From Candidatus Liptonbacteria bacterium (GTDB lineage Bacteria > Patescibacteriota > Minisyncoccia > UBA6257 > 2-01-FULL-56-20): a stretch of 64,000 nucleotides of DNA. Below the pieces are notes generated by a model, which was not told the origin of the DNA, searched no databases, and worked only from the letters and a program-made list of their open reading frames with translations. Shown piece after piece: positions 4,391-63,646 of this stretch. Each line of letters starts with the position of its first letter. Position 1 is the stretch's first letter. The position numbers and the translations under genes were made by a program. The stretch is taken from NCBI GenBank assembly GCA_016186635.1, contig JACPLI010000020.1:3548-67547 (forward strand), read 5' to 3'.

Positions 4391-4500
4391 CATGAGAAAA
4401 CCCAGCCTTCTGTGCTCACTGCATAGTCATCTTTTGTTATCTACGAGCGCGGCGAGCATTAATGGGAAATTTGCCATGCCATGCTCAAGCTGATAGCATC

Positions 4501-19840: not shown

Positions 19841-20971
19841 ATGAAAATTATGAAAGACACATTTGGTCCGGAATATATTGTCAGGGTATATAATCCCAAG
19901 GTTGGCATGGAGGGATTTTTGGTCATTGATACTACCACACTTGGACCCGGTAAGGGCGGCATTCGGATGACTCCAAATGTAACGGAAGAAGAAGTGCGGA
20001 GACTGGCTCGGGCGATGACCTGGAAAAATGCTCTGGCGGGCATTCCTTTTGGCGGAGCAAAAGCTGGAATTATCTGGCCGGGTGGATCAGATGAGCTAAA
20101 AAGGAAATATGTTCAGAGCTTTGCCCGCGCAATCAAGTTATTTACGCCGCGAAAGTATATTGGCGGGCCAGATGTGAATACGGGCGAAAAAGAAATGCAG
20201 TGGTTTGTGGAGGAAACAGGCAATTGGCGCTCCGTTACCGGCAAGCCTGCCACTCTCTGTATGAAATTATTTGGAAGGACGGGCGAGAAATGCGGTATTC
20301 CTCACGAATTCGGGAGTACCGGTTTTGGCGTAGCTCAAGCCGTTTTAGAAACGGCACAAGCTCTTGCTATTGGTATTCGTGGGGCTCGTGTGGCGATTCA
20401 CGGTTTTGGAAATGTCGGCACGTTCACCTATACTTATCTGCATCGCGCAGGAGCCAAAATTGTTGCTATTGCGGACAGTAGCGGCGCGATTTTTAGCGAT
20501 GCTGGGTTAGATGATGCTGAGGTGCAGGAAGTTATAAAAAAGAAACAACACATCTCTGAATGTAAAGGGTGCCGCAAGATTTCGAGTGAAGATTTTTGGA
20601 AGGTACCTGTTGATTTTCTCATTCCCGCCTCAGTTACGGATGTCATCAACGAAACGAATAAAAATGGTATCCGCGCCAAAGCAATTATTGAAGCGGGAAA
20701 TATTCCTATGAGAGAAAACATAGAAGAAGAGTTGTCTAAAAAAGGCATTGTTATAGTTCCAGATTTTGTGGCAAATGCGGGCGGGGTTATCTCCTCGTAT
20801 GCGGAATATCGCGGCTATAATCCTAAAAGAATGTTTGCACTTGTGGAGAGAAAAATTAGAAATAGCACTCGCCTCGTTTTGGAACAAAGTATAAAATTGA
20901 AGAAAAATCCTCGTGAAATCGCTTTGGCAATCGCCAAAGAAAAGGTCGAGGCGGAGATGAGTAAAAAATAA
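19841..20971 (+). CDS. gdh: Glu/Leu/Phe/Val-type amino-acid dehydrogenase (likely glutamate dehydrogenase)
   Basis: Catalytic GGAKAGI and Rossmann HGFGNVG. Confidence 0.85.
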   Translation: MKIMKDTFGPEYIVRVYNPKVGMEGFLVIDTTTLGPGKGGIRMTPNVTEEEVRRLARAMTWKNALAGIPFGGAKAGIIWPGGSDELKRKYVQSFARAIKLFTPRKYIGGPDVNTGEKEMQWFVEETGNWRSVTGKPATLCMKLFGRTGEKCGIPHEFGSTGFGVAQAVLETAQALAIGIRGARVAIHGFGNVGTFTYTYLHRAGAKIVAIADSSGAIFSDAGLDDAEVQEVIKKKQHISECKGCRKISSEDFWKVPVDFLIPASVTDVINETNKNGIRAKAIIEAGNIPMRENIEEELSKKGIVIVPDFVANAGGVISSYAEYRGYNPKRMFALVERKIRNSTRLVLEQSIKLKKNPREIALAIAKEKVEAEMSKK

Positions 20972-39778: not shown

Positions 39779-40447
39779 TTACTTCAACCCCAAGATATTT
39801 TTAGCAATGGCCGGCACCTCGCGGCGGAAATATGCCTTTATTTCTCCCCACGTCGCCTTAAAGAAAAGGGTTGGCATAGGGTCGTCTTCCGCCTCCGTAA
39901 AATAAGTTAAGCTTTTGATGAAGTGCGGGAAGTTCAGATTTTTTGTTGGATAGTGTTCTTGCACGCGAGAGAGAATGTCGCAAAGCGGCTCCCGATTTTT
40001 GACATACCAGTACAGGTCAACAAAATCGCGCTTGCGGCAACGCTGACTGATTGCAATAATCTTCATCACCGCAATATCTTCCGGAGGAAGGATTTTAACG
40101 GTGCCGAAACGCGTGAATGTTCCTGAAGCGACGAAAAAGGGATAGGCGATAAAACTCGCTTTTGCTCCCGCATACTCTCCGTATAATGTGCCGGCGGTTG
40201 CCGATGTTGTGTTCCAATCGCCAGTTTTGAGAAGTACCCCTTCGAGCGCAAGCCGGTCAAACTCGGCTTCCGGCGTGAAAAAATCCAAATCAACGGACTG
40301 GCGATGTCCGACTTGCAGCGCGAGCGCCGTGCCCCCCGCGAGATACCAGCCGCCTCCGCGAAAAAGCGGCATCTTTGAGAATGTTTCAAGCGCGTGCTTG
40401 GTGTCCGCAGGCAATGCCTCAAAATGGAATCCATCAACTTGTTGCAT
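39779..40447 (-). CDS. AbiEii/AbiGii-family nucleotidyltransferase toxin (type IV TA)
   Basis: LFRGGGWYLAGGTALALQVGHRQSVDLDFF matches the DUF1814 signature. Start taken at internal M42 of the track ORF (±3 nt). Confidence 0.65.
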   Translation of the reverse strand: MQQVDGFHFEALPADTKHALETFSKMPLFRGGGWYLAGGTALALQVGHRQSVDLDFFTPEAEFDRLALEGVLLKTGDWNTTSATAGTLYGEYAGAKASFIAYPFFVASGTFTRFGTVKILPPEDIAVMKIIAISQRCRKRDFVDLYWYVKNREPLCDILSRVQEHYPTKNLNFPHFIKSLTYFTEAEDDPMPTLFFKATWGEIKAYFRREVPAIAKNILGLK

Positions 40448-40464
40448 GGTGTGCGGTACCGTTA

Positions 40465-40740
40465 TCAAGCAAACACAAGTTTCCACAATGCTCGCGATTG
40501 CGGCTGCAGCACGCGAGAGGTGAGCACTACCTTCTTGATGAGCGACTTGGGATAATACGCCGCCATCCATCGCAACTCGTCGTCTCTTCCGAAATCCAGA
40601 ATCCGCTCAATCACATAGACCGCGTGTTTCTTCGGGTCAATCGTCTTCGGGTCAACGTCCCAAAAAAGCGATTGCCGAAATCGCATTGCGGGCGTGGCGC
40701 TTTTTTTCGCGACCTTCATGTGTCGCCTATATTTTAGCAT
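40465..40740 (-). CDS. Putative cognate antitoxin / partner of the AbiEii-like toxin (91 aa)
   Basis: Lies immediately upstream on the same strand. Basic N-terminus. No motif could be named. Confidence 0.35.
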   Translation of the reverse strand: MLKYRRHMKVAKKSATPAMRFRQSLFWDVDPKTIDPKKHAVYVIERILDFGRDDELRWMAAYYPKSLIKKVVLTSRVLQPQSRALWKLVFA

Positions 40741-40794
40741 TTTTTACTCATTCTTTCTAATTTATTTCTCTCGGTTTTTTTGTTGCTCCGGATT

Positions 40795-40826
40795 CCGAAG
40801 TTGGACTTCCGGGAGGAAGGATTGTG
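40795..40826. repeat. Family-B palindrome copy 5
   Basis: ccgaagttggacttccgggaggaagg. Confidence 0.6.
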
Positions 40827-40868
40827 ATTGTACTTTCTTCCCTCTGATTGAGAAGCCGGAAGCGGGAT

Positions 40869-41300
40869 TTATTTTTCTTTTCCGACGAATGCGCGCACCT
40901 GCCGCGTATATTCCCCAAAATCGCCGTAGTTTTTCTTCGTATTTCGCACAAAGAGAGCCCTATCCAGTTTTTCGTATTGGTGCACAATCATGTTTCGCAC
41001 GCCGACAATCGGAGCTATTGTGAACGCAAAGTTTTTCTCTATCACATTCATCTCGCCAAGCAAGCGGAAGGTGCCCTCCAAATCGTCCGGCGCGCCAAGG
41101 TGTTTTTCCTTGATGATGTGCCGGTTGATATCTATCATGGCGTCAACTGCGAGCTGAAAAACCCGCTCAAGCGCGTGATATTTAACACTATCTTTCAAAA
41201 TATCGTCGTCCGAGAACTCGGCAACAAAGGGCTTTATTTCTCCCACATAACCTGCCAGCAGATGCAGCTTTTTCTCCACAAGCGCAAAATCGAGCGTCAT
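40869..41300 (-). CDS. hepT: HepT-like HEPN toxin (DUF86)
   Basis: Rx4-6H HEPN motif RNMIVHQY near the C-terminus. Overlaps the upstream MNT gene by 4 nt. Confidence 0.75.
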   Translation of the reverse strand: MTLDFALVEKKLHLLAGYVGEIKPFVAEFSDDDILKDSVKYHALERVFQLAVDAMIDINRHIIKEKHLGAPDDLEGTFRLLGEMNVIEKNFAFTIAPIVGVRNMIVHQYEKLDRALFVRNTKKNYGDFGEYTRQVRAFVGKEK

Positions 41301-41698
41301 AGTTTTGAAAGCGTGTAATCAAGGAAATCCCTTCGCAGTTCAAACAATATTTCTGCATCATCGTAGTTCCGGAGCGCATATAAATATGCCTCGTTAAAAA
41401 GCGATTGACTTCGCTCATACAGCACCACCGCATTCGTCACGATCTGCTTCGCGAGAAGCGGGGGCGCAGTTTTCAGATTCACGAGCGACACCTTGTCGTT
41501 CCGAAAAACCTCCGTCAGGTCGAAATTCAAAAGCACCTCATCGTCAAACGAGAGTTTTTTGTCCGCGAGATATGCCACGTCCACATCGCTTTCCTTGTGC
41601 GTCTGCCCTGTTGCCTGCGAGCCGAAAAGCACGACCAACGAAAGGCCGTATTTCTCGGCAAGCGCGGCGATATGGGGTTGTGTTGATGCAATATTCAT
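41297..41698 (-). CDS. mntA: MntA-like minimal nucleotidyltransferase antitoxin
   Basis: GSQATGQTHKESDVDVAY matches the NTase fold GS...D.D motif. Confidence 0.8.
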   Translation of the reverse strand: MNIASTQPHIAALAEKYGLSLVVLFGSQATGQTHKESDVDVAYLADKKLSFDDEVLLNFDLTEVFRNDKVSLVNLKTAPPLLAKQIVTNAVVLYERSQSLFNEAYLYALRNYDDAEILFELRRDFLDYTLSKL

Positions 41699-42330
41699 GT
41701 GATTTCATCGTACCATGTTTCTCTAAATGCTCCAATAACCCTTATTTTATAATGGTTTCCGACTTGTCCTGAGCTTGCCGAAGGAGAGACGATTGACAAG
41801 ATAGCATAAAGTATGCTATATTTACACCGTTATTTTGCAGTTCTTTCACACAGCAAAATCGTTTGAACCCCGTTGTTGTACGAGAATAGCACCATGCTAG
41901 TCACTAAGTCCTAATGGCTAAGTTCTAGTGGCTGTCATTGAGCTATTCTCGTGTGAGCGTAGCCAGTATCTTCGCCTCCTGTCTCTTTTGAGAGAATGGA
42001 CGAACGGTATCGCGCTACCGCAACAGCGCATCTCCATTTCCGATGACCTCAGTGGACCGCTGGGTTCGAAACTCGGGCAATGCCCGAGTAATGGTGCAGT
42101 GGGATGATCAAACTGGAAGGGTTCCAGCACTCATCCTTTCCACCCATTACCATGGGGATGGTGGCGGGCAGGATGCCCGCTTCGTGCGGATTCAGATTGG
42201 AAAACCCCTCTATTTTTCGCCCGCAATGTAAAAATGTGCGGGCACGCCGAAAGGCAATGGAGACGACTGAATCCTGTAGATTCGGTCAGGTGGAGCCCTG
42301 AGCTACGTCGAAGGGCTCCACCAATCTCTA

Positions 42331-52823: not shown

Positions 52824-53513
52824 ATGAAAATAGGAGTTTTGGGAGGTACCAGTCCACTGGTAAGTATTCAGTTGCAGAGGCTGATTGCGGAGTCTACTCC
52901 TGCGAGAAAGGACGAAGACCATTTGGAGGTGGTGTGCTACACCAATCCAAAGGTTCCCGATTGCGCCGACGGGCCCGAGAGCGACCGGGACGCGACGGAG
53001 CATCATGAAGCACTCGTGACTTCCGCGCAGCTTTTGGTGCGGGCGGGCGTTTCCATGATTGCGATACCGTGCAACCGGGCGCATATGCGTATTACGGACA
53101 TTCAAGGGCGTGTTCCGGTGCCGGTCATGAATATGGTGGAGCTTGCGGTGCGCCGGGTTGTTGAGGAGCATGGCAAAGCCCACGTAGGTCTTATTGCCGC
53201 GGGACCGGTGGTTACCGGCAAGATATATGAACGTACGCTGCCCGATTCAGGAGTGCATTGGATATTGCCCGACGCGCGGGGGCAGGAAGCGGTGGCGAAA
53301 GCCGTGCAGGCGGTCAAGGCGAATGCGGACGTGGACGGCAGCGCGGTGGTGAAGGTCGCAAAACAACTCATCGAGAACGGCGCGAAAGTGCTCGTCGTGG
53401 GTTGCACGAAGCTTTCCATGCTTACGGAAGATATCGAGAAACTGGGGAAGCCGGTAATTGACCCCATGCGCGTGCTTGCGGAGCACCTTGTGGACCAGGC
53501 GAGAGTAGTGTGA
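52824..53513 (+). CDS. Asp/Glu/hydantoin racemase family protein
   Basis: MKIGVLGGTSPLVSIQLQRLI. The conserved Cys lie in IPCNRAH and VVGCTKLS. Confidence 0.8.
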   Translation: MKIGVLGGTSPLVSIQLQRLIAESTPARKDEDHLEVVCYTNPKVPDCADGPESDRDATEHHEALVTSAQLLVRAGVSMIAIPCNRAHMRITDIQGRVPVPVMNMVELAVRRVVEEHGKAHVGLIAAGPVVTGKIYERTLPDSGVHWILPDARGQEAVAKAVQAVKANADVDGSAVVKVAKQLIENGAKVLVVGCTKLSMLTEDIEKLGKPVIDPMRVLAEHLVDQARVV

Positions 53514-53556: not shown

Positions 53557-53692
53557 TCGGGTATTGATTTCAGGCGAGGCGCCCCGCATGAAATCAGTAT
53601 CGGAGGAAACCATGTTGTGTGGACGTGGCCGATGCTGAAGCTCTTTGACTTCTTAAAAAACGTGCGAAGTGAAAGAGTTGATTAATGCAGCA
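53557..53692 (+). promoter_or_regulatory. Duplicated leader element L1: hairpin, RBS, 8-codon uORF MLCGRGRC (53612-53638), second hairpin, then gene start MQQRWE
   Basis: Near-identical (~95%) to 57674-57821. Hairpin tgatttcaggcgag..ctcgcatgaaatca, then ggaggaaaccATG, then ctctttgacttc..gaagtgaaagag. Confidence 0.7.
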
Positions 53693-54380
53693 ACGTTGGG
53701 AGATACATATGCTAAAAAGTTTTTTGGAGTTTGACCCTATGAAATGGACGGCGGAGACGAAGAAAGATGTTGTGAAGTCTCCGATGGTGAAGAAGGTAGT
53801 GTCGTTTGCGCTTGGGCCGAACGGCACTAATATTGCCCAGGCGGCGGGGCGCTGGCACGAAGAAATGGGAATTTCCGCTAAGGCGGAAATCAAGCTTTGT
53901 GATTTGCCGGAATCGGCGGTGCGGGAAAATTTGGCATTGCACGAAGATGGAGCTTTGGGGGTGTTCTGGACGTGCGCCGTGTTCAAGCGCCTGAATGAGG
54001 TGTTTTTTGATAACCCTGGGACATTCCCGTTTTTTTTCCAGTACGATATGCTTTTGGATGAGATGCAGCTTGCTGCTATCTCACGGGAGTGTTCGAAAAT
54101 TGATAATCCGGCGTCCATGACGATTGCTACACATGTGTCGCCAGCTCCTTTGGTGGTAGAGCTTGTGGCCGCTCACGCTCGGGTTGTGGATGCAAGCAGT
54201 AACGCCGAAGCCGCCCGTAAGTGCGAGGCGGGGGAAGTGACGGCGTGCATAACGACCGAGACTGCAAGACTTATGCAGCATCTTGTCACACTACACCGTT
54301 TCGGCTCCCCTCTCATGGTTTTCTTTGGTGGAATCACAGAGAGTGGACTTGCCTTGCTGACTTTGGCTGACGGACGCTAG
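53685..54380 (+). CDS. Prephenate dehydratase-like protein without ACT domain; resembles BacA/AerD/SalX non-aromatizing prephenate decarboxylases
   Basis: VSFALGPNGTNIAQAAG parallels the BacA LGPEGTSSEYAA. SNAEAARKCEAGEVTACITTETARL parallels STSQAARKVKEGLYDIALTNELARQ. No ENS or TRF motifs, and no regulatory domain. 231 aa. Confidence 0.6.
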   Translation: MQQRWEIHMLKSFLEFDPMKWTAETKKDVVKSPMVKKVVSFALGPNGTNIAQAAGRWHEEMGISAKAEIKLCDLPESAVRENLALHEDGALGVFWTCAVFKRLNEVFFDNPGTFPFFFQYDMLLDEMQLAAISRECSKIDNPASMTIATHVSPAPLVVELVAAHARVVDASSNAEAARKCEAGEVTACITTETARLMQHLVTLHRFGSPLMVFFGGITESGLALLTLADGR

Positions 54381-54511
54381 GACGTCACTCCGGCACTCAA
54401 CTCTTAAGTGGATGCATCAGCATTCCACAAGCAATTTCAATCCCCGTTGCGGCAACGCAGCGGGGGCCTTCTTTTTTTGGTTTCTTGAGTTATGCTTGAA
54501 AATAGAATGGC

Positions 54512-56047
54512 ATGAAGAAAGCGCAATCAAAATTTACGCAGGCAGTTATCGGCGCCAAGGGGAATATGGGCCGCTTTTTGGCGCAACACTTGGTTGCGCT
54601 CGCGCCGGTTATAGAAATAGATGCGGACAGCAGCGCTGCCGCGTGGAGAAAAGCCTGGAAAGCGGATGTGATATGGCTTTCTATTCCGCGGGAAGCAATT
54701 GATTCGACGTTTCGGGGGAAGAAACTCAACAAAAACCAGCTTGTTGTCGATATTTGCTCTGTTAAAAGCGATGTGGGGAGAATTATCGGGGAGAGCGGCG
54801 CCACTCACCTTTCCCTGCATCCGTTGCATGGTCCGAAGGTTCCTTTAATAGGACAGCGTTGGGCGGTAATACAAACCTCTTCGCATGGCGAGCAGCATCC
54901 TCTGGGGCGCGTAACGCTCGATTTTTTCAGAAAGCAAGGAGTGGCCTTTTTGCCGCCGGTCCCGCATGACCAGCACGATTTTATGATGGGAGTTACTTTG
55001 AGTATTCCGGAAGTTCTCACTGTCGTTTTAGACAGAGTTATCGGTAGTTATGCAAAACGTTCGGGGAAGCCTGTTCCTTCTCAAGAAGAACTGATGCGGT
55101 GGGCAGTGCCTGCTTCGAACGCCATTTTCGGCGCGTACGTGCATATCGTGAACAGCACGCCGGAGTGGCTGCGGTATGAGATTGTGAAGCAGGCTCCGCA
55201 TGATGTCTTGGGCGCCATTCGTGATGCTTGTCGGGGGATTGAAGAACTTTCTTTAGGCGATGTGGAAAAGGAGGTTGCGGAGCAGGCACAAAGCGTGCAT
55301 CAGATTTCTCCCGCAGAGCAGGACCGTATCCGCCGGTGGATTAACCAGTGGTTTGTGGACTCGACCAAGACATTCTTTAAAACCGCGAAAGAGAGCCGTG
55401 TGAAACCGGCATTAAACATCCAATGGATGGAGAAGAAGGAAGCAATCTTTCCGCGTTCCAAGAAATCCCTTACCGTGGGGATTCACGGAATAGACGGTTG
55501 TTTCACGCACGAGGCGTTGCTGCGCTTTCTTGAAGAAAACGGAATTTCCGAACACCGCGTGGCGCCGAAGTTCCTTGTGACCGCAGAGAATGTGCTTGAA
55601 GCGGTTACTTCCGGTAAAACGGACTTGGGGATATTTGCAATCGCGAATTCCGGTTCGGGCGCTTACGTTTCGAGCATGGCGCCGATCGCAAAACATACGT
55701 TCAAAGTGCAGGCAGTGATGGGTATGGAAATTATGCAGTGTCTTTTGGCGCACAAGTCGGTGAAAAGCGTGGATGGCATCAAGGAAGTGTTTGGTCATCC
55801 GCAGGCGGTGAGCCAGTGCAAGCGGACGCTTGAAGAAAGTTATCCGCGGCTCAAAGTTGTTGCCGGAAAAGACAGCGACGACACGGCGCTTTGCGCGAAG
55901 TGGATTGCCGAAGGGATTCTGCCGAGAACCACCGCGACCCTCGCCTCGCAGATAGCCGCGAGGCGCTACGGGCTGAATATCATTTCCTACAACATGCACC
56001 ACGACCCGTTCAATACGACGACGTTTCTTCTCGTATCAAGGAAGTAG
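54512..56047 (+). CDS. Fusion protein: prephenate/arogenate dehydrogenase (TyrA) N-domain plus atypical PDT-like C-domain
   Basis: N-terminal NAD site AVIGAKGNMGRFLAQHL. C-terminal PDT fold with ANSGSGAY (not ENS) and NTTTFLLV (TTF, not TRF). No ACT domain. Confidence 0.7.
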   Translation: MKKAQSKFTQAVIGAKGNMGRFLAQHLVALAPVIEIDADSSAAAWRKAWKADVIWLSIPREAIDSTFRGKKLNKNQLVVDICSVKSDVGRIIGESGATHLSLHPLHGPKVPLIGQRWAVIQTSSHGEQHPLGRVTLDFFRKQGVAFLPPVPHDQHDFMMGVTLSIPEVLTVVLDRVIGSYAKRSGKPVPSQEELMRWAVPASNAIFGAYVHIVNSTPEWLRYEIVKQAPHDVLGAIRDACRGIEELSLGDVEKEVAEQAQSVHQISPAEQDRIRRWINQWFVDSTKTFFKTAKESRVKPALNIQWMEKKEAIFPRSKKSLTVGIHGIDGCFTHEALLRFLEENGISEHRVAPKFLVTAENVLEAVTSGKTDLGIFAIANSGSGAYVSSMAPIAKHTFKVQAVMGMEIMQCLLAHKSVKSVDGIKEVFGHPQAVSQCKRTLEESYPRLKVVAGKDSDDTALCAKWIAEGILPRTTATLASQIAARRYGLNIISYNMHHDPFNTTTFLLVSRK

Positions 56048-56177
56048 TTGATTCCCATTGGCGGGTGCGGTAGGGTGGTAGGGCTTGTCTAGAAAGACGG
56101 GCTTTCCTTAACAATTTTAATGACGATGTTCGAAGCGCATGGCAGCGTCGGCGAGCGTCGTTCCACAACCAAAATGA

Positions 56178-57380
56178 GTGAAGGTACTTATGAGAAAATC
56201 ACGATTGTCAGTCGGTGCGGATTTATTTGTCAGAATAAAGTCTGCAATTGCGGCGGCGGAAGCGTCGGGCAGGAAGTTGATTCCGCTTGCCGTCGGGCAA
56301 CCGACAGGAGCGGCATTCCTTGAAGCGAGACGAGCCGCCGCCGTGGCAGTTATGAGCGAGGCGGAAGCGATGCATCAGTATCAAGACGTATGGAGTCCCG
56401 GGGTGCCGAACTTTGCCGAGCGGTTCGTGCAGACGCATGTGAAGACGAAACTTGCGAGGCAAAGCGTGGACTTTCTGCCGATACCGGGAATTAAGTCGAT
56501 CTTGAAAACGGTCATCATCGCGTCGCGCTGTTCCAGTGAGCGACTCAAGGTCCGGACGATGACGGCTCCGGGCTACGGCGTTCCTGCCACGTGGTGCAAG
56601 GGGCACTTCCGCGATTTCATCACCCATACGGAAGTGTCGCTTAACCCGAGGAATCGCTTCTTATTTGATCCAAGCTTCGACCTTGAGAATCTAACGCACG
56701 GCTTGCTCATGCTGAATTACCCACACGCGCCATCCGGACAGATTGCGAGTCAGGAGTGGCTCTGGCGTGTGTGCAGATTTTGCGAGGCGCAGAACATTCG
56801 CATCTTCAACGATGCGGCATACACGGCGCTTGTGCACGCCCCCAAAAATCATTCAACGCTCACCGACGTTGCAGTTGAGTTTCCTAATCTGTCTTGGGCG
56901 GAAGCATTTTCCGCGTCAAAGGCACTGGGAAACACCACGGGGTGGCGTATCGGCGCGGTTGCGGGGTCACCCGATTTTGTGGACGATGTGCGGACTGTCA
57001 AATCAAGCGATGATGCCGGGTTCGTAGCGTTTGCTGCGGCGGGAGTCATTGAAGGGTTTGAGAAGTATGCGCATCTGATTGAGGCGAACCGCAAAGTCTA
57101 TGCTCGACGACTGCGACTACTCATTAAGTGTCTTCGGTCGAAAGGCATGCGGCTTGCAGTTCAACCGAAAGCAGGCTTCTTCACGCTTTGGCTCACGCCA
57201 AAGCGGGCATTCGGTCGGGACATCGCATCGGCAGAGGACTTCAACTTCCTCATGCTTCAACGCACACGCATCTTTGGGGTGCATTTCCCTCCCTATCTCC
57301 GCTATGCGGTGGTAGGGGACGTGGAAGCGGCGCTCCCCGAGATTGGCGCCGCATTCGAAGCGGCGAAAGTCGCTTATTAA
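56178..57380 (+). CDS. Class I/II pyridoxal-phosphate-dependent aminotransferase
   Basis: LMLNYPHAPSGQIAS, IFNDAAYTALV, and a Lys-containing SASKALGNTGWRIG-like segment. ~400 aa. Confidence 0.8.
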   Translation: MKVLMRKSRLSVGADLFVRIKSAIAAAEASGRKLIPLAVGQPTGAAFLEARRAAAVAVMSEAEAMHQYQDVWSPGVPNFAERFVQTHVKTKLARQSVDFLPIPGIKSILKTVIIASRCSSERLKVRTMTAPGYGVPATWCKGHFRDFITHTEVSLNPRNRFLFDPSFDLENLTHGLLMLNYPHAPSGQIASQEWLWRVCRFCEAQNIRIFNDAAYTALVHAPKNHSTLTDVAVEFPNLSWAEAFSASKALGNTTGWRIGAVAGSPDFVDDVRTVKSSDDAGFVAFAAAGVIEGFEKYAHLIEANRKVYARRLRLLIKCLRSKGMRLAVQPKAGFFTLWLTPKRAFGRDIASAEDFNFLMLQRTRIFGVHFPPYLRYAVVGDVEAALPEIGAAFEAAKVAY

Positions 57381-57393
57381 TCAGCTTTATCAT

Positions 57394-57433
57394 GCAGGCG
57401 GACGGGTTTCCTCGTCCGCCTGCTTGTATTTTT
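57394..57433 (+). terminator. Rho-independent terminator after the aminotransferase gene
   Basis: caggcggacgggtttcctcgtccgcctg followed by cttgtattttt. Confidence 0.8.
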
Positions 57434-57449
57434 GGGATCCTATCTCTAC

Positions 57450-57478
57450 TTGACAAGGTTTTTAAAGGAGAATAATCT
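57450..57478 (+). promoter_or_regulatory. Sigma70-like promoter (TTGACA-17-TAATCT)
   Basis: -35 ttgaca at 57450-57455, a 17-nt spacer, and -10 taatct at 57473-57478. It drives a ~200-nt unit ending at the terminator at 57645. Confidence 0.55.
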
Positions 57479-57644
57479 GAATGTAATATGATGTGCAGAG
57501 TGCAAAATTTAGCGTGCATCGTCCCATTCTCCCCATCGTTCGCGGCGGCTTTTTGGTTTACATTTTATGGATTTACCACCAAGGAGGCGGGAGAAAAAGC
57601 CACACTGTAAGGAATCAGACTGAAACACAAATAGAAATTTCTCC

Positions 57645-57675
57645 AAGCCTCCTCCAAAAGGAGGCTTTTCGTTTC
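57645..57675 (+). terminator. Rho-independent terminator immediately before leader L2
   Basis: aagcctcctccaaaaggaggctt followed by ttcgtttc. Confidence 0.7.
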
Positions 57676-57821
57676 GGGTATTGATTTCAGGCGAGCCGCC
57701 TCGCATGAAATCAGTATCGGAGGAAACCATGTTGTGTGGACATGGCCGATGCTGAAGCTCTTTAACTTCTTAAAAAACGTGCGAAGTGAAAGAGTTGAAA
57801 GAAATGCAGCAACGTTGGGAG
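57674..57821 (+). promoter_or_regulatory. Duplicated leader element L2 with uORF MLCGHGRC (57729-57755)
   Basis: Second copy of the 53557 element. It includes a copy of the first 6 codons (MQQRWE) of gene 53685, but here they run into a short dead-end frame. The real downstream gene starts at 57886 in another frame. Confidence 0.7.
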
Positions 57822-57885
57822 CATAGTTTGTTATGTTATGTTTTTTTCTTCTGGCGGTGGAAATCCGCTTGGGAAGGAGATTGCG

Positions 57886-59265
57886 ATGAATACGCAACTC
57901 CAGGAGATGTTCGATGTGATGATGGGAAGAGGTGACAAAAGGTTGCGGGTGTATGGAGGCAAGGGTGGCAACCTTGAAAGGGGTATCGTGCTTGACTCGG
58001 GGAACGCCTTCGGTAGGTCATTGAGTGACTTGCTTGAAAGGCATGAGTACCAGGCGCGGAGGTTTCAGGTGGAACCTGCTGCGGTCATGCAAGTCTTCAC
58101 AGGCTCCATTTCAGGGGTTTCAACAGGAAGGACGCTGGATGGTTTGTTCGATCTTCCGTTGTTCTGTATGGATGTTGCGGAAAACCCAGCATCTTTGGAA
58201 CACACAACCATCACCATGGGTTTCGGAGGTTCGACATCACCAACTCCTCTCCGTTTCCCTGCATATGTCGTGCCAGCGATGAGAATGCTTTGCGGGCTTG
58301 AGGCGCTTGGATTGCCTTTGCCTGCAGTGCGGCTCATTTCAGCACAGATGAGCGCGGTTACCGTAAACGGCATGAATGCGGCGGAACTTTGGCCTGCAAC
58401 ACTTACCAACTTCGCGGCGGCGAAACTCTTCGTGGAAGAGTTTTTTCCGAAGGTTGCCCATCGGCTTCTGGTCGATTTTGATCAGCCGCTTGAGGGGGAA
58501 TACTTGGAAGCTGCGACGGCACTTGGAGAGTATGTCACAAGAGAGGGTAAGAAAGAGCGAATTCTTGATGAGGCCTTTGCAGCGATGGAACGACAGGGGC
58601 GGCAGCATGGCGGGGCAGAGAGAGCAATGTTGTACGTGGCGTTGCACGTTCTCCTTTCGCCTGATTGCACCGCTGGGAAATTCGGTTCTCCATGGGTTTC
58701 CGCATGTCACCAAAATGGCATCGTGGATCAGATTATGATTACCGCAGGGTGCGAGACCGAAGGCTACTTCAACGCCCTTCGGCGATTCCTAGCCGAGAAT
58801 GCTCGGAAGGTTCTCGGTGGAGCAGTGAGGTTTCCTCGCCGATCTTTGCAGGTAATCTTCGGGGCGCATGTTCCTCCGTACTATCCAAGGGTTGGAGAAT
58901 TGGACTTTCAGTCAAGGAGAATCGAGAGCTTGCTTTATGACTTCAAGGGGAAGCCCCGGGGAGATTCCGAATGGCGACGGGCGAGAGCGGATCATGAGCT
59001 GGCCTGGGATTATGACGTGCTTGAAGCCGCCGCAGGGGGCTGGAGGCCGTTTCTCGAGTGGGTGTGGGACACAGCAGCTCTCTTTGAGCTTGCTGATGGA
59101 TTAGGGAACAACGCGCGAGAGCGGTTTGCGGGATTGGTCTTGCGGGATGATAAGCAACGCGACCCTTTCGCCATTTTGTTGGAAGCGTATGCTGAAAAAT
59201 TGAAGGGCAAATCATTTGCTGCTCTATGTGCGCTTCAGCGGCAAAGGTTTCTGAATGGGACATAG
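57886..59265 (+). CDS. Hypothetical protein (459 aa), cluster member
   Basis: Long ORF with ordinary codon usage and no recognisable motif. Start at M17 of the track ORF. Confidence 0.5.
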   Translation: MNTQLQEMFDVMMGRGDKRLRVYGGKGGNLERGIVLDSGNAFGRSLSDLLERHEYQARRFQVEPAAVMQVFTGSISGVSTGRTLDGLFDLPLFCMDVAENPASLEHTTITMGFGGSTSPTPLRFPAYVVPAMRMLCGLEALGLPLPAVRLISAQMSAVTVNGMNAAELWPATLTNFAAAKLFVEEFFPKVAHRLLVDFDQPLEGEYLEAATALGEYVTREGKKERILDEAFAAMERQGRQHGGAERAMLYVALHVLLSPDCTAGKFGSPWVSACHQNGIVDQIMITAGCETEGYFNALRRFLAENARKVLGGAVRFPRRSLQVIFGAHVPPYYPRVGELDFQSRRIESLLYDFKGKPRGDSEWRRARADHELAWDYDVLEAAAGGWRPFLEWVWDTAALFELADGLGNNARERFAGLVLRDDKQRDPFAILLEAYAEKLKGKSFAALCALQRQRFLNGT

Positions 59266-59396
59266 TCCGAGGGTGGACTCGCACGAGTGTTGGTAAACAA
59301 ATTTGAGGGAGACATATGACTTGTGTCTCCCTCAAACCCGTTTCACAGAAGTTGAACCGCATCTCTTAATACGATATTGTGATACGTATATGCACT

Positions 59397-60851
59397 ATGA
59401 AAGAAGTTTTAATTGAACAAAAAAAGCAAATCGCGGAAAAGGTGGACGCGGTGCTCAAGAAAATTCTCGATGGGAGACCGGCGCTCCAGGCGATTGCGGA
59501 GGCGCGCACTCTTGGGGAATACTTGGAGCCTCCGCTCCGATGGAATCCGGAAAAGGGAGCGTTTCCGCTGCGCCCGCTTCTTGAGGACTTAATATTGAAG
59601 GAAGCCGAACGCTTATACGGAATCCCAACGCGCGAGGCGTTGCGGGAAGAGTTTTCCAAAAACTGGGCGGTGGAGACAGGGGCGCATATTTATTTGCCGC
59701 GGCGGTATGACCGACTCGAGAAGAAAGGGGCGGGGCAAATCAATCCCGTGGTGTTTCAGGGGCAGGTGCTGTGGGCGGCGCTGCGGCGCGCGCTTTTGGG
59801 GAGCCGCATTAACTTCAGCATGAATACCGGCCGCATACCGCTCTGCAATGCAAATAGCGGCGCATATTTGGATTTTTCTTTTTCCACGGAGCCGCTCCGC
59901 CTCGTGAGCAACCGCTATATGAATACGCCGCAGCTCTTTATTCCCGCGCTGGACGATGAAAAACTCAAAGAGAAAACCGAACAGCTTCAGGCGCTTGCGA
60001 GTCAGGAAAAAATTACCGATGCCGAATATGCGTACGCGAAGGAAGTACTTGCTGTGTTTGTGGAGCATCGCGACGGGCGCTTCAATCACCAGGTGGCGGT
60101 GGGGCAGGCGCATATTATGAATAAAGTATTGCCGCAGGGAATGAGGCAAGTCACGATTGACCTCGAGAATATCGGCACCGCATTCATAGTGCGGCTTTTG
60201 CGGGACCCGTCGAGTACGCTTTACCGGATATTCAGCGATGAAAAGCTTCGCGCCCGTTTCTATGGCGCATTAAAGGGCATCCGCACCGCATGGGAGGAAG
60301 GGGACAGTATGTTTTACGAAGTGGACCGTTCGGGGAAGGAGCTTAAGCTGCGCGAGTACAGGGGAGACTTAATGCCCGAGGTACTTGCGGACCTGCTTGA
60401 ATCCGAGCGTATTCTCCACAAAGGACTCCTTGGTTTTTATATATTCATCATTGAAGGCGGGTTGTGCCCTATCGGCGGTATGTTCCAGTCGCAATATTGC
60501 ATCGAGCTCCGTGACCGTATGATTCCCATACTTGAGGCGATTGGCGAAGAAGCTCGTGCCGCGCATCTTCAAGAGATGCCCACTGCGGTTGCGGCGACGT
60601 CCCCCTGCTGGGGGCTTGTGCGGAGGGGCGCGGGAGTGGAGCTCTTGATTGCCATGGATTGCATGGCGGTGCCTTTATCCGAAGCCGATTTCGCTAAAAT
60701 TCCCGCCCTCTCCGGAAGGGATTCATTGCGCCTTGCCGCGCCGTCGCTTGCCCAACTCATGCTCCACGAGGAAGCCGGAGTTACTTACGAGGAATTGCGG
60801 GAACTCTTGGGGGAGCATATTGTTACTCGCGGGATGAGTACTGCAACATAA
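59397..60851 (+). CDS. Hypothetical protein (484 aa), cluster member
   Basis: Long ORF with no recognisable motif. Its stop overlaps the next gene's start (ATGA). Confidence 0.5.
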   Translation: MKEVLIEQKKQIAEKVDAVLKKILDGRPALQAIAEARTLGEYLEPPLRWNPEKGAFPLRPLLEDLILKEAERLYGIPTREALREEFSKNWAVETGAHIYLPRRYDRLEKKGAGQINPVVFQGQVLWAALRRALLGSRINFSMNTGRIPLCNANSGAYLDFSFSTEPLRLVSNRYMNTPQLFIPALDDEKLKEKTEQLQALASQEKITDAEYAYAKEVLAVFVEHRDGRFNHQVAVGQAHIMNKVLPQGMRQVTIDLENIGTAFIVRLLRDPSSTLYRIFSDEKLRARFYGALKGIRTAWEEGDSMFYEVDRSGKELKLREYRGDLMPEVLADLLESERILHKGLLGFYIFIIEGGLCPIGGMFQSQYCIELRDRMIPILEAIGEEARAAHLQEMPTAVAATSPCWGLVRRGAGVELLIAMDCMAVPLSEADFAKIPALSGRDSLRLAAPSLAQLMLHEEAGVTYEELRELLGEHIVTRGMSTAT

Positions 60852-61984
60852 TGAACATGTTCACCATTACCGGCGGTTCCATTTCGAAAATAACGATTCC
60901 GCTCGTGAAGCCGTTCGTCACAAGTTTCGGCAGTATTGCAGAGCGGGAAATCGTGCTTGTCTCGCTCGAGACGAAGGAAGGGGCGATTGGCTGGGGAGAA
61001 GCCCCCGTGCTTTCCCTGCCCGTGTACGGCGCGGAGATTCCCGAAAGCGCAATTGCGGTGATTGCCCGAGTCATTTTCCCGCGTGTGCGGGGTGTCTCGT
61101 TCGCGCACCCAGAGGAACTCGATACCGCGCTCGGCTTTATTCGCGGCAACGAATTTGCGAAGAGCGCGGTGATTATGGCGGCGTACGACCTCTACGGGCA
61201 ACTTGGGAAAAAGCGGCTGGTGGACCTTATCGGCGGCACGAGGAATGAAGTGCAAAACTCCGCGACTATCTCGATTCACGAACGCCCAGAGGACGCGATT
61301 GAGGAAGCGCGTGGGTACTATGACGCGGGAATTCGCTTTTTGAAACTCAAGATAAAGCCGGGGTTTGACTATGAGCATGCGCGGGCAATCCGCGAATCGT
61401 TCCCGGAAGCGAAACTGATGCTTGATGCGAATGCGAGCTATGCATTTTCGCCCGATGCAATTGCAATTTTGAAGAAGTGCGATGCGCTGGGGCTCTATTG
61501 CCTTGAACAGCCGTTCCGCGCCCGGGAACTTCTCGCGCATGCGAAGCTTCAGCGGGAAATCAAGGCGCCTCTCGCGCTTGATGAAAGCGTGGAATCATAC
61601 GCCGACGCAGAGCAGGTGATTGAGCTCGGAAGTGCTAAGTTGGTGAACGTCAAAATTGCGCGCGTGGGGGGACTTGTTCAGGCGCTCGCAATCAACAAAC
61701 TATGCGCCGCGCACGGCGTCCCCGCATGGGTGGGCGGTATGCTTGAGTCGCCGGTGGGGCTTTACGCGAACCTCGCGCTTGCGAGCGTGCCGAACTTTGA
61801 CTACCCGATTGATTTTCTTGACACGTTCACGTATCTCCGCGAGTATGCGTCGTTTTTCACCCGCGTGCCGTTCGAAATTCGCGGAGGGACTGTCGCCATC
61901 TCGCTTTCTGGATATGGCTTAGGACTGGAACTCGACTGGGAGCGCTGTAGAAGCCACATTTCGGAGCGCATTCCGTTGGCGTGA
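60851..61984 (+). CDS. Enolase-superfamily MLE-subgroup enzyme (dipeptide epimerase / N-succinyl-amino-acid racemase / OSBS-like)
   Basis: KxK in FLKLKIKPG, metal ligands in LMLDANASY, ...LEQP..., and LALDES. Confidence 0.8.
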   Translation: MNMFTITGGSISKITIPLVKPFVTSFGSIAEREIVLVSLETKEGAIGWGEAPVLSLPVYGAEIPESAIAVIARVIFPRVRGVSFAHPEELDTALGFIRGNEFAKSAVIMAAYDLYGQLGKKRLVDLIGGTRNEVQNSATISIHERPEDAIEEARGYYDAGIRFLKLKIKPGFDYEHARAIRESFPEAKLMLDANASYAFSPDAIAILKKCDALGLYCLEQPFRARELLAHAKLQREIKAPLALDESVESYADAEQVIELGSAKLVNVKIARVGGLVQALAINKLCAAHGVPAWVGGMLESPVGLYANLALASVPNFDYPIDFLDTFTYLREYASFFTRVPFEIRGGTVAISLSGYGLGLELDWERCRSHISERIPLA

Positions 61985-62018
61985 GCGATAACTAATTATT
62001 TTCACCTTTACAATTACA

Positions 62019-63146
62019 ATGAAGAATCAGGAAATCCAGAAGATATTGTTTGACCTCATACGTTTTAAGACAGAAACAAAAAAGCAGAGCGAAGTGAAGC
62101 GGGCAATCGGGTATATCGGGAAGTTTTTTGCGGGGACTTCGTATGCGGTGAAGCGCTTCGCGAAGCACGGTGTGCATTCGCTGCTGGTGTATCCAAAAGG
62201 TACAAGCTGGAGAAATCCGGAAGTTCTCCTGAACGGCCATGTGGATGTGGTTCCCGCAAGCGAGGCGGGGCAGTATGCGCCATTCAGGCGCGGGCATAAA
62301 GTGTTCGGGCGCGGGTCGTCCGATATGAAAGGAGGACTTTCCGCGATAATCGGCGCGCTTCTTGAACTTGATGCGAAGCGTGTGCGGCATGGTGCGGCGT
62401 TTCTCGTGAACGGCGACGAGGAGGTGGGGGGAGCGCATGGCGCGGGGTATGTGGTGAACGACATAGGCATCCGGCCGAAGTTCGTGGTGGTCGCCGATAA
62501 CCCGCGGCATGAGGGATTTGTGGTTACTACGAAAGAGAAAGGAGGAATATGGCTCGAGCTCACCGCTCGCGGGAGGGCGGCGCATGCGGCGTACCCGTGG
62601 CTCGGCGAAAATGCGCTTGAGAAGCTCATTCATGCGGTGGGGAAGATTCAGCGCCTCGTGGGGAAGGTGCGGCCCGACGCATGGAAGACCACCGTAAACC
62701 TCTCGGGGATTCATACGGACGGCGCGACGCATAACATGGTTCCCGCAGGGGCGCGCGCCATGCTTGATTTGCGCTTCACGGAGGAGTTTGCGAAGAGCGC
62801 GGATGAGGCGTACCGGAAAGTACGGCGCGCGGTGCCGGGGGTGGAAGTGCGTGCGCTTGTGAAAGTGGCGCCGCTCCGAAATAACCATCGGCACGCGCAC
62901 ATTCGGAATTTTCGGTCGCTCTTTTCCCGGACTCTCGGCAGGAAAATTCCCTTCGGGTACGGGCACGGCGCGAGCGATGCGCGTTACTTCGGCGCGCGCG
63001 GTATTCCGAGCATCCTTGTGGGCACCGTCGGCGCGCACTGGCATTCCCGGGGCGAATGGGTTGATTTCCGCACGGTGCTTGCGCTCAAAGACGTGGTAAA
63101 GGCATACATTGTGAAGCACCATGTTCATCGCGAGGTTAACTCTTGA
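62019..63146 (+). CDS. M20-family metallopeptidase/deacylase (ArgE/DapE/desuccinylase-like)
   Basis: GHVDVVPA, GRGSSDMKGG, and VNGDEEVGG. Confidence 0.85.
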   Translation: MKNQEIQKILFDLIRFKTETKKQSEVKRAIGYIGKFFAGTSYAVKRFAKHGVHSLLVYPKGTSWRNPEVLLNGHVDVVPASEAGQYAPFRRGHKVFGRGSSDMKGGLSAIIGALLELDAKRVRHGAAFLVNGDEEVGGAHGAGYVVNDIGIRPKFVVVADNPRHEGFVVTTKEKGGIWLELTARGRAAHAAYPWLGENALEKLIHAVGKIQRLVGKVRPDAWKTTVNLSGIHTDGATHNMVPAGARAMLDLRFTEEFAKSADEAYRKVRRAVPGVEVRALVKVAPLRNNHRHAHIRNFRSLFSRTLGRKIPFGYGHGASDARYFGARGIPSILVGTVGAHWHSRGEWVDFRTVLALKDVVKAYIVKHHVHREVNS

Positions 63147-63301
63147 CGGCTCCTGCTTTCGCGCTATAGTGAATCCAACAATGAATTGCTTCCGCACAAT
63201 CTCGCTTCTTAGCCTCCTTCTTAGCCCGACTAAGGGTGGAGGTTTTGCTTGTGTCCGGATTGCAAAGAGCGAATAGCAAATCGCAAAGAGCAAATAGAAA
63301 C

Positions 63302-63337
63302 AAGCCAGCCCTCCACGGACTGGCTTGTTTCTTTTTT
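63302..63337 (+). terminator. Rho-independent terminator
   Basis: aagccagccctccacggactggctt followed by gtttctttttt. Confidence 0.75.
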
Positions 63338-63646
63338 GGGAACAAGAGTGTGTTTTTTGTTTGTCTAATAATTCAATTTTCCAATGAGAAACATTCAGCA
63401 AAATCTTTTACTTGGATTGCTTCTTCAACTTCTTCTTACAGAGGGAGGGTTTTGTTGGAAATTGGTTTATAGATAGTAACTATAAAACGGATTCCATAAG
63501 CCCCTCCCTGCGCGGAGGGTTTTTTTGAGGTTTCGTTTCGGGGACTACGGACGAAAAAAACATCCCTAGTCCCCGGGTCAAAATCCTTAACAAAGCAACA
63601 CAGGTCCGGCTGCGTTGCAACAAAATGATTGATAGAAAGGAACCGT

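Follow-up and report, generated by a model that had tools for sequence, protein, structure and literature searches.

Two gene units around a BacA-like protein

We analysed a 64,000-nucleotide stretch of DNA from a Candidatus Liptonbacteria bacterium (contig JACPLI010000020.1, positions 3,548 to 67,547; hereafter the window), in which the 53.7-63.1 kb region carries a homologue of the prephenate decarboxylase BacA (G1), a fusion of a TyrA-like dehydrogenase to a prephenate dehydratase (PDT)-like domain (G2), an aminotransferase (G3) and four further genes (G4-G7) (Table 1). The region consists of two units, G1-G2-G3 with a racemase gene (G0) upstream, and G4-G7, as conservation across lineages is limited to G1-G2 (plus, in some loci, an aminotransferase), a strong terminator-like hairpin comes after G3, and G4-G7 are confined to Liptonbacteria relatives. 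A previous interpretation made from the letters alone (the sequence-only reading) had instead proposed a single 10-kb secondary-metabolite cluster, which the same three observations contradict.

All seven plus-strand open reading frames (ORFs) underlying that proposal were recovered in an ORF check, each where it had been placed, and G1, G4 and G5 are 100% identical to the NCBI proteins HYW65_02975, HYW65_02990 and HYW65_02995 of Candidatus Liptonbacteria. G2 as a whole spans 54512-56047 and encodes 511 amino acids (aa), the TyrA-like part preceding the PDT-like part. Missing from the earlier gene list was G0, which lies directly upstream of G1. It scored 143 bits on the TIGR00035 asp_race model (cut-off 93) and 175 bits on the CuyB cysteate racemase model, under the cut-off of 190, and its synteny with G1 is kept in related Liptonbacteria (L008/L009, L021 and L026/L027; L001-L108 are labels of the loci or contigs of collected relatives). 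Searching Rfam, we found no riboswitch, T-box or leader RNA in the cluster, and no match for the hairpin between G1 and G2.

Table 1. Genes and other features of the region (window coordinates; PLP, pyridoxal phosphate; NSAR, N-succinylamino-acid racemase; OSBS, o-succinylbenzoate synthase).
Feature	Coordinates	Strand	Evidence or remark
G0, Asp/Glu-racemase-family (PLP-independent) amino-acid racemase	52824..53513	+	PF01177, E 2.5e-37
G1, BacA-family PDT-fold protein, 231 aa, HYW65_02975	53685..54380	+	hhalign, tree
Hairpin between G1 and G2	54441..54466	+	11-bp stem, 8 GC pairs, then T-rich tail
G2 N-terminal domain, divergent TyrA-like NAD(P)-dependent cyclohexadienyl dehydrogenase	54512..55441	+	PDH_N, hhalign
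G2 C-terminal domain, variant prephenate dehydratase, no ACT	55457..56047	+	PF00800, 107 bits
G3, divergent class I aminotransferase	56178..57380	+	PF00155, E 5e-19
Intrinsic-terminator-like hairpin	57394..57433	+	13-bp stem, 10 GC pairs, tail TTGTATTTTT
G4, protein without assigned family, 459 aa, HYW65_02990	57886..59265	+	Liptonbacteria only
G5, uncharacterised-family protein, 484 aa, HYW65_02995	59397..60851	+	Translationally coupled to G6
G6, NSAR/OSBS-subfamily enolase-superfamily enzyme (N-succinylamino-acid racemase type)	60851..61984	+	MR_MLE_N/C; TIGR01928, 236 bits
G7, M20 ArgE/DapE-family deacylase	62019..63146	+	PF01546, PF07687 (dimerisation domain)

G1 belongs to the BacA family

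The sequence-only reading had taken G1 to be BacA-like rather than PheA-like, and both profile-profile comparison and a bootstrapped tree group it with authentic BacA. The BacA query is 100% identical to a Bacillus velezensis protein, has orthologues in nine other Bacillus species, and the genes 3′ of the matched Bacillus BacA encode a cupin, a short-chain dehydrogenase/reductase (SDR), an ATP-grasp protein, an MFS transporter and an aminotransferase, that is, the bac operon. BacA was the known non-aromatizing decarboxylase compared with G1. A 45-sequence alignment of the G1 family matched BacA at 98.5% in hhalign (E = 3e-15, 165 columns), as against 13.5% (E = 0.0021) for the PDT domain of Escherichia coli PheA and 2.3% (E = 0.021) for that of G2, and BacA itself reached 13.6% (E = 0.0021) with the E. 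coli domain. In a neighbour-joining tree of 42 sequences, the G1 family, BacA and a second BacA-like protein from L002 were split from the G2 PDT domains and canonical PDTs in 100/100 bootstraps. The hhalign values and the tree rule out that G1 is a misread canonical PheA. Pairwise identity between G1 and BacA is only about 21-23%.

Residues H150, S152 and P153 are invariant in the G1 family alignment, which contains many invariant polar residues; these three correspond to the 'SHPSP' of BacA, where canonical PDTs have HPQA. At the position of the canonical N-x-T-R-F, G1 and BacA both have '...P-M...F-G'. Sequence inspection and searches of Pfam and NCBIfam revealed no ENS string, TRF string or ACT domain in G1, as had been claimed before. 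The window protein obtained only 14.6 bits on PF00800 and no passing Pfam or NCBIfam match, and 32 of the 45 family members matched PF00800 (best E = 2.5e-6); judged by sequence, the relatedness of G1 to PDT is real but remote. All family members with a name in the databases searched bear the label 'hypothetical protein', except three JGI entries, which read 'prephenate dehydratase'. Homology thus supports the view that G1 is BacA-like, from which BacA-type chemistry is predicted. Another candidate role, a chorismate mutase substitute completing a chorismate mutase-TyrA-PDT-aminotransferase set, was rejected because the clusters of close G1 relatives already hold a CM_2 gene.

G2 fuses variant TyrA and PDT domains

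The PDT domain of G2 scored 107 bits against a PF00800 cut-off of 25.2 and matched the E. coli PheA PDT domain at 96.9% in hhalign (E = 1.6e-10). In the neighbour-joining tree, the G2 PDT domains are monophyletic (100/100 bootstraps) and form their own clade adjoining canonical PDTs. The sequence-only reading had considered that both PDT-fold sequences might fall within canonical PheA; the G2 domain does lie on the canonical side, but G1 does not. Motifs were counted in 39 full-length G2 orthologues. The ENS position reads ANS in 38 of them, with Tyr replacing Glu in the remaining one, and the TRF position reads TTF in 30, TTM in 6, TTT in 2, TNF in 1 and TRF in none, the Thr always being kept. 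HPQA is kept in 32/39. The window protein has 'NTTTF' at the canonical TRF site and stops right after the PDT domain, and neither Pfam nor NCBIfam detected an ACT domain in G2. The earlier description of G2 as a TyrA-like/PDT fusion with TTF and no ACT therefore stands, and the motif is not misread, as the TRF Arg and the ENS Glu are each replaced in 39/39. By contrast, the canonical PDT-ACT proteins on two of the same contigs (L035 and L079) retain E-N-V and T-R-F. The domain also missed the PDT equivalog cut-off (PRK11898, 89 bits versus 219). Within the system, conservation is highest in this domain: in nearly every locus, it shows greater identity to the window than G1 or the TyrA-like part does. 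The TRF triad has been reported to be critical for PDT catalysis (PMC13217925), and as of 2021 no substrate-bound PDT structure had been published (PMC8192741).

The TyrA-like domain is divergent, reaching 23.7 bits on PDH_N, just below the cut-off of 26.5, and at best 39 bits and E = 5.6e-10 on the NCBIfam prephenate dehydrogenase models, where the cut-off is 310. Its 39-orthologue profile matched E. coli TyrA at 93.8% in hhalign (E = 1.7e-7). In E. coli TyrA numbering, the motifs GxxGxMG, SVK (K178), LHPLxGP (H197) and HD (H245) are kept, and the catalytic His motif is retained in 34/39 orthologues. A hidden AroQ domain in the linker was rejected: there was no CM_2 match, and the stretch is the helical C-terminal half of TyrA. 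The sequence-only reading had used the fusion of TyrA to PDT as an argument against a canonical pathway. This argument is not supported, as TyrA-AroQ-PheA-ACT fusions are found in Archaeoglobus (PMC1173090) and in Ca. Huberarchaea (PMC11237513).

The G1-G2 pair is conserved across lineages

Loci of relatives came from exact-protein look-ups and a metagenome scan with the G1 profile (80 loci) and were analysed by tblastn and ORF clustering. The 77 informative loci, some of them redundant copies, had at least 400 nt 3′ of G1. G2 directly follows G1 in 54 (type A, mean GC 43%), at a distance of 38-213 nt with a single exception of 769 nt; type A members that bear names are Liptonbacteria and Pacebacteria/Paceibacterota. 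Another 18 loci (type B, mean GC 59%) have no G2 and combine G1 with DUF2000, an FGE-sulfatase-like protein and a molybdopterin oxidoreductase, and the remaining 5 fit neither type. In one locus, L056, each member of the trio has a gene of its own: directly after G1, at L056:6962-8485, a PDT-like protein (222 aa) precedes a TyrA-like protein (280 aa), so that the G2 domains are both split and swapped.

Some type B loci add an aminotransferase, a DAHP synthase (DAHP, 3-deoxy-D-arabinoheptulosonate 7-phosphate), a chorismate mutase or a haem-oxygenase-like (PF14518) protein, with chorismate mutase present in L001, L023 and L043 and DAHP synthase in L001, L029 and L048. This linkage argues for prephenate as the G1 substrate. 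Type B G1 proteins are 50-55% identical to that of the window and nested among the type A (CPR, Candidate Phyla Radiation) G1 proteins in the tree, suggesting that the two types share the same chemistry. The high-GC type B clusters themselves (for example L001:8998-15262 and L023:10001-13548; also L029, L043, L048, L066, L089 and L102) have the appearance of an uncharacterised pathway starting from prephenate.

In 18 loci G2 is followed by an aminotransferase, a class I enzyme of the G3 type in 9 of them and an IlvE-type class IV enzyme in the other 9 (309 bits versus a cut-off of 279). Elsewhere, the neighbours of G1-G2 are primary-metabolism or housekeeping genes. They include, in L004, a pair of LeuA-like genes along with ribosomal proteins; in L035, L079 and L082, a DAHP-synthase-like gene (divergent), a PDT-ACT of canonical type and a tyrosyl-tRNA synthetase; and HtrA, ClpB and ComEC. 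In the Liptonbacteria-like L021, one more TyrA-ACT, encoded as a stand-alone gene, lies after G2 and before the aminotransferase (L021:12722-13807; PRK11199, 126 bits). The DAHP-synthase-like proteins beside PDT-ACT and the tyrosyl-tRNA synthetase (L035:117-1049, L079:171-1052 and L082:2871-3767) have about 300 aa and no Pfam match, and they scored under the NCBIfam aroFGH cut-off (E = 1e-14 to 1e-27). With E. coli AroA, AroB, AroC and AroK as tblastn queries, no homologue was detected in any flank, where the only shikimate-type genes were the DAHP-synthase-like ones on those three contigs. The tight pairing, the systematic loss of hallmark residues in G2 and the canonical PDT-ACT or TyrA-ACT on some of the same contigs together suggest that G2 is specialised to work with G1.

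The sequence-only reading had likened the region to the bacilysin, aeruginoside and salinosporamide pathways. This analogy is not supported, as the neighbours belong to primary metabolism and tblastn detected no BacB cupin, BacC-type SDR or BacD ATP-grasp homologue in any G1-G2 locus (BacG was not used as a query). From the bacilysin-type set (BacA, BacB, BacC, BacD, BacE, BacF and BacG), the region has counterparts of BacA and the aminotransferase only, and among the collected loci no cupin isomerase, SDR, ligase, non-ribosomal peptide synthetase (NRPS) or exporter recurs beside the pair. A natural-product-like cluster with two BacA-like proteins (191 aa and 214 aa) was observed on the 325-kb contig L002 (L002:839-16759). 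It also encodes an HMGL/IPMS-like enzyme, large and small aconitase subunits, two radical-SAM enzymes, a methyltransferase, an S8 peptidase, an AMP-binding enzyme, an aminotransferase and a GNAT, a gene set that suggests keto-acid chain elongation on a prephenate-derived acid.

G3 and the lineage-restricted unit G4-G7

G3, which had been called a class I aminotransferase before, proved to be one, and the SASK lysine motif is visible in its translation. Its best PDB relatives are weak (E = 1e-9 to 1e-11): an Arabidopsis prephenate aminotransferase, an archaeal aromatic aminotransferase and a Thermus aspartate aminotransferase. The terminator-like hairpin starts 14 nt past the G3 stop codon, and a gap of about 450 nt then leads to G4. 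Among G1-G2 loci, G4, G5, G6 and G7 are confined to Liptonbacteria relatives, and they are absent from most such loci. The idea that G3 is DapL and G7 DapE of lysine synthesis was discarded, as scores fell far under the equivalog cut-offs.

The sequence-only reading had listed G4 and G5 as large unknown proteins, and this description is upheld: their coordinates match NCBI-called proteins, and neither has a Pfam, NCBIfam or PDB sequence match, G5 not even with a 60-sequence profile. They are not paralogues, as no similarity was seen on comparison. G4 has only 3 homologues among 5.8 billion clusters, all on Liptonbacteria-type contigs, and is missing from L006/L024 and L021; its AlphaFold2 model (predicted local distance difference test (pLDDT) score 41) is unusable. 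The G5 family comprises 437 representatives at E<=1e-3, and the G5 stop codon overlaps the G6 start. A G6-type gene after G5 was also observed in L006/L007 and on the distant soil contig L108 (43% identity), a short contig (2.75-kb) on which we detected no G1-G3 homologues. The G5 model (pLDDT 59) weakly resembles BshC, the bacillithiol cysteine-adding enzyme with a class-I-aminoacyl-tRNA-synthetase-like fold, at 10% identity; no sequence-profile or Pfam link connects the two. Two further observations concern this family. The 917-aa representative P0150 has a weak C-terminal match to Peptidase_M15 (D-Ala-D-Ala dipeptidase; E = 5.7e-4), below cut-off. In L008/L009, past G4, G5 is recognisable for its first 47 codons only (L008/L009:11479-11619, 96% identity) and the contig continues for about 900 nt, which may reflect truncation of G5 or a break in the assembly.

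For G6, the sequence-only reading had left a choice between dipeptide epimerase and N-succinyl amino-acid racemase within the MLE subgroup. The second assignment was borne out, at the level of the NSAR/OSBS subfamily, by TIGR01928 (cut-off 200.65), and the first was rejected, as the NSAR/OSBS scores lie far above those of epimerase models. The best PDB relatives are the N-acylamino-acid racemases 1wuf, 2zc8 and 1sja (E about 1e-66 to 1e-62), compared with 7e-40 for an Ala-Glu epimerase. Aligned to 1sja, the Amycolatopsis NSAR, G6 has all catalytic residues (KxK, D, E, D and K263) plus the second-shell R266, whose role in NSAR has been described (bioRxiv 10.1101/2022.03.03.481873). An M20 gene is adjacent, no GNAT is present and G5 occupies the GNAT position. 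MenC of the menaquinone pathway was rejected, there being no men gene among the ~38 window ORFs scanned. G7 was earlier called an M20 deacylase or peptidase, in agreement with its two Pfam domains. Every NCBIfam model remained below its cut-off (TIGR01910 DapE-ArgE, 132.5 bits versus 217.6); PDB matches were 2rb7 (E = 3e-37) and DapE (E = 1e-18). A G7-type gene follows the G6-type gene in L006/L007/L024. By sequence, G6 and G7 match a known D-to-L amino-acid conversion (salvage) module, of which unit 2 would be a lineage-specific member or variant.

Near G1-G3 in Liptonbacteria relatives we also observed a movable gene set (L006:369-5533, L021:17541-20987 and L024:1-2386), in which an unknown protein of 600-650 aa and an S58 (DmpA-like) peptidase stand beside a second racemase (Asp/Glu type) and a second M20 enzyme; it looks like D-amino-acid or peptide salvage. 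Antisense to G7, a 469-aa ORF (window 61992-63401, minus strand) most probably arises as a spurious shadow in this GC-skewed, plus-strand-coded region. The window is coded almost wholly on the plus strand, and its GC skew is positive in every 2-kb bin except 40001-42000. Other genes in the window encode a 936-aa UPF0182 membrane protein (4462-7272, plus strand), a Glu/Leu/Phe/Val-type amino-acid dehydrogenase (19841-20971, plus strand) and an AbiEii-type toxin nucleotidyltransferase (39779-40570, minus strand).

A proposed decarboxylation-first route and its alternatives

Our preferred explanation, to which we give a probability of roughly 38%, joins a decarboxylation-first module (G1-G2-G3) with a separate D-to-L unit (G4-G7). 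G1 would decarboxylate prephenate and keep the C4 hydroxyl, producing dihydro-4-hydroxyphenylpyruvate (H2HPP). The G2 domains would be specialised TyrA and PDT paralogues that act on this already decarboxylated dienol, keeping the residues that act on the C4 hydroxyl (the TyrA His and the PDT Thr) and having lost conserved charged residues. The TyrA-like domain would oxidise H2HPP with NAD(P)+ to 4-hydroxyphenylpyruvate, the PDT-like domain would dehydrate it to phenylpyruvate, and G3, or elsewhere the IlvE-type enzyme, would transaminate these keto acids to Tyr and Phe, which the primary-metabolism context favours as products. In unit 2, G6 would racemise N-acyl (succinyl) amino acids, G7 would deacylate the L form, and G5 may supply the N-acylation step that a GNAT performs in Geobacillus. 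The broader proposition, that many Patescibacteria use an undescribed decarboxylation-first aromatic branch in which a BacA-family step is followed by a TyrA-like/PDT-like fusion, devoid of the hallmark PDT Arg and Glu, working on the dienol, be the outcome a new stepwise Tyr/Phe route or a dihydro-/tetrahydro-tyrosine-type amino acid required by these minimal cells, has in our estimate slightly better than even odds.

Several points weigh against the decarboxylation-first explanation. Phenylpyruvate from G1-G2 would make the canonical PDT-ACT on the same contigs redundant, and dehydration of H2HPP requires a base, yet the PDT-like domain has lost its Glu. The lost Glu and Arg might be a mere salt-bridge pair with no bearing on the substrate. 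The BacA-type chemistry of G1 is predicted from homology at the low identity given above. In the TyrA-like domain, MAFFT puts a His at the R294 column of TyrA, and the confident hhalign region ends at TyrA residue 284; since it ends before R294, we dropped the loss of this residue as support for a decarboxylated substrate. Neither chorismate mutase nor shikimate genes were found in the 64-kb window (~38 ORFs scanned) or in the G1-G2 flanks, except for the DAHP-synthase-like genes of three contigs. For G5, the resemblance to BshC offers a weak lead towards an amide ligase, from a low-confidence model, and not family membership.

In a rather unlikely alternative, G2 would act on prephenate itself as an ordinary bifunctional dehydrogenase/dehydratase, like the Archaeoglobus protein but without AroQ and ACT; its motif changes would be neutral, and G1 would be an independent side-branch enzyme or a non-catalytic partner. 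Such an enzyme would fit the PF00800 score of the PDT domain and its place beside canonical PDTs, the kept catalytic Thr and TyrA His, the TyrA-AroQ-PheA precedent and the 18 type B clusters in which G1 occurs without G2. It is harder to reconcile with the very tight adjacency of the two genes in 54/77 informative loci, kept even where G2 is split, or with the finding that all 39 orthologues have lost the TRF Arg and the ENS Glu, both of which the co-resident PDT-ACT proteins retain. The equivalog cut-off is also missed widely (89 versus 219 bits), and the many invariant polar residues of G1 do not fit a pseudoenzyme.

A dihydro- or tetrahydro-tyrosine product, though we consider it unlikely, is a serious rival in view of the redundancy with canonical PDT-ACT. 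Here G1 would again yield H2HPP, the PDT-like domain would isomerise it in the role of BacB, the TyrA-like domain would reduce or redox-tailor the ring in the role of BacG or BacC, and the aminotransferase would complete a dihydro-/tetrahydro-tyrosine-type amino acid. The four catalytic units (decarboxylase, periplasmic-binding-protein-fold domain, NAD(P) oxidoreductase and aminotransferase) parallel BacA-BacB-BacG-BacF, a route reportedly described by Mahlstedt and Walsh in 2010. Consecutive steps are often joined by gene fusion, hallmark positions are consistently altered in both G2 domains, and the PDT-ACT and TyrA-ACT genes beside G1-G2 on some contigs mean that the product is perhaps not Phe or Tyr. 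Against it stand the lack of a recurrent cupin isomerase, SDR, ligase, NRPS or exporter beside the pair, the housekeeping and amino-acid biosynthesis genes that are its neighbours, and the Thr, NS and HPQA motifs expected for dehydration, which the PDT-like domain retains; a secondary metabolite so widely kept in minimal genomes would also be unusual.

It is highly improbable that the 53.7-63.1 kb region is one biosynthetic gene cluster, with G4 and G5 ligating or N-acylating the amino acid from G1-G3, and G6 and G7 turning it into a dipeptide or N-acyl natural product. In its favour are the shared direction of all genes and the order G3-G5-G6-G7, found again in L006, L007 and L024. Against it speak the hairpin after G3, the absence of G4-G7 from most G1-G2 loci (the Liptonbacteria-like L021 among them), G5-NSAR without detected G1-G3 homologues on the short L108, and the known salvage pathway, which already explains NSAR plus M20.

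Significance and comparison with known systems

CPR bacteria are thought to make almost no amino acids. To our knowledge, the only known role of BacA-type prephenate decarboxylases is to open the pathways to a few antibiotics and protease inhibitors. In the present data, a sister family of BacA is firmly linked to an apparently specialised TyrA-PDT fusion on dozens of contigs of low GC, of which the named ones are CPR, and G1-G2-aminotransferase is a conserved, previously undescribed module: the literature searched contained nothing linking CPR with prephenate enzymes and nothing on a BacA-like/TyrA-PDT pairing. If G2 does use the G1 product, the module would represent either new enzymology for the last steps of Tyr and Phe synthesis or a new, widespread non-proteinogenic amino acid, and either outcome would alter current views of what CPR can metabolise and how far they depend on hosts. 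G2 would also provide natural PDT and TyrA variants for studying the roles of the conserved TRF Arg and ENS Glu.

Like the D-to-L conversion module known from earlier work (bioRxiv 10.1101/2022.03.03.481873), unit 2 combines an NSAR/OSBS enzyme with an M20 deacylase, here encoded directly after it; G4-G7 differ in lacking a GNAT and in having the uncharacterised 484-aa G5 coupled upstream instead. G2 resembles other fused aromatic-pathway enzymes, namely the P- and T-proteins of E. coli and the TyrA-AroQ-PheA(-ACT) proteins of Archaeoglobus and Huberarchaea. It joins a TyrA-type dehydrogenase and a PDT in one chain and keeps the TyrA His and the PDT Thr; it differs in having no chorismate mutase domain, no ACT, and replacements at ENS and TRF. 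Unlike the known fused enzymes, it fails the PDH_N and NCBIfam equivalog cut-offs and is always partnered with a BacA-like gene.

G1 resembles BacA, AerD and SalX, which act in the bacilysin, aeruginoside and salinosporamide pathways, in being a PDT-fold protein of about 200-250 aa that stands alone and has no ACT, the direct comparison being with BacA. It shares with BacA the H-x-S-P in place of HPQA and the lack of TRF, and G1 relatives cluster with chorismate mutase and DAHP synthase genes. It nonetheless sits in a separate clade and has 'WTCAVF' where BacA has 'PHAYDG'. In contrast to those pathways, G1 has no BacB/AerE cupin, BacG/AerF reductase or ligase partner (BacG was not queried); its partner is instead the TyrA-like/PDT-like fusion, and its setting is minimal CPR genomes among housekeeping genes.

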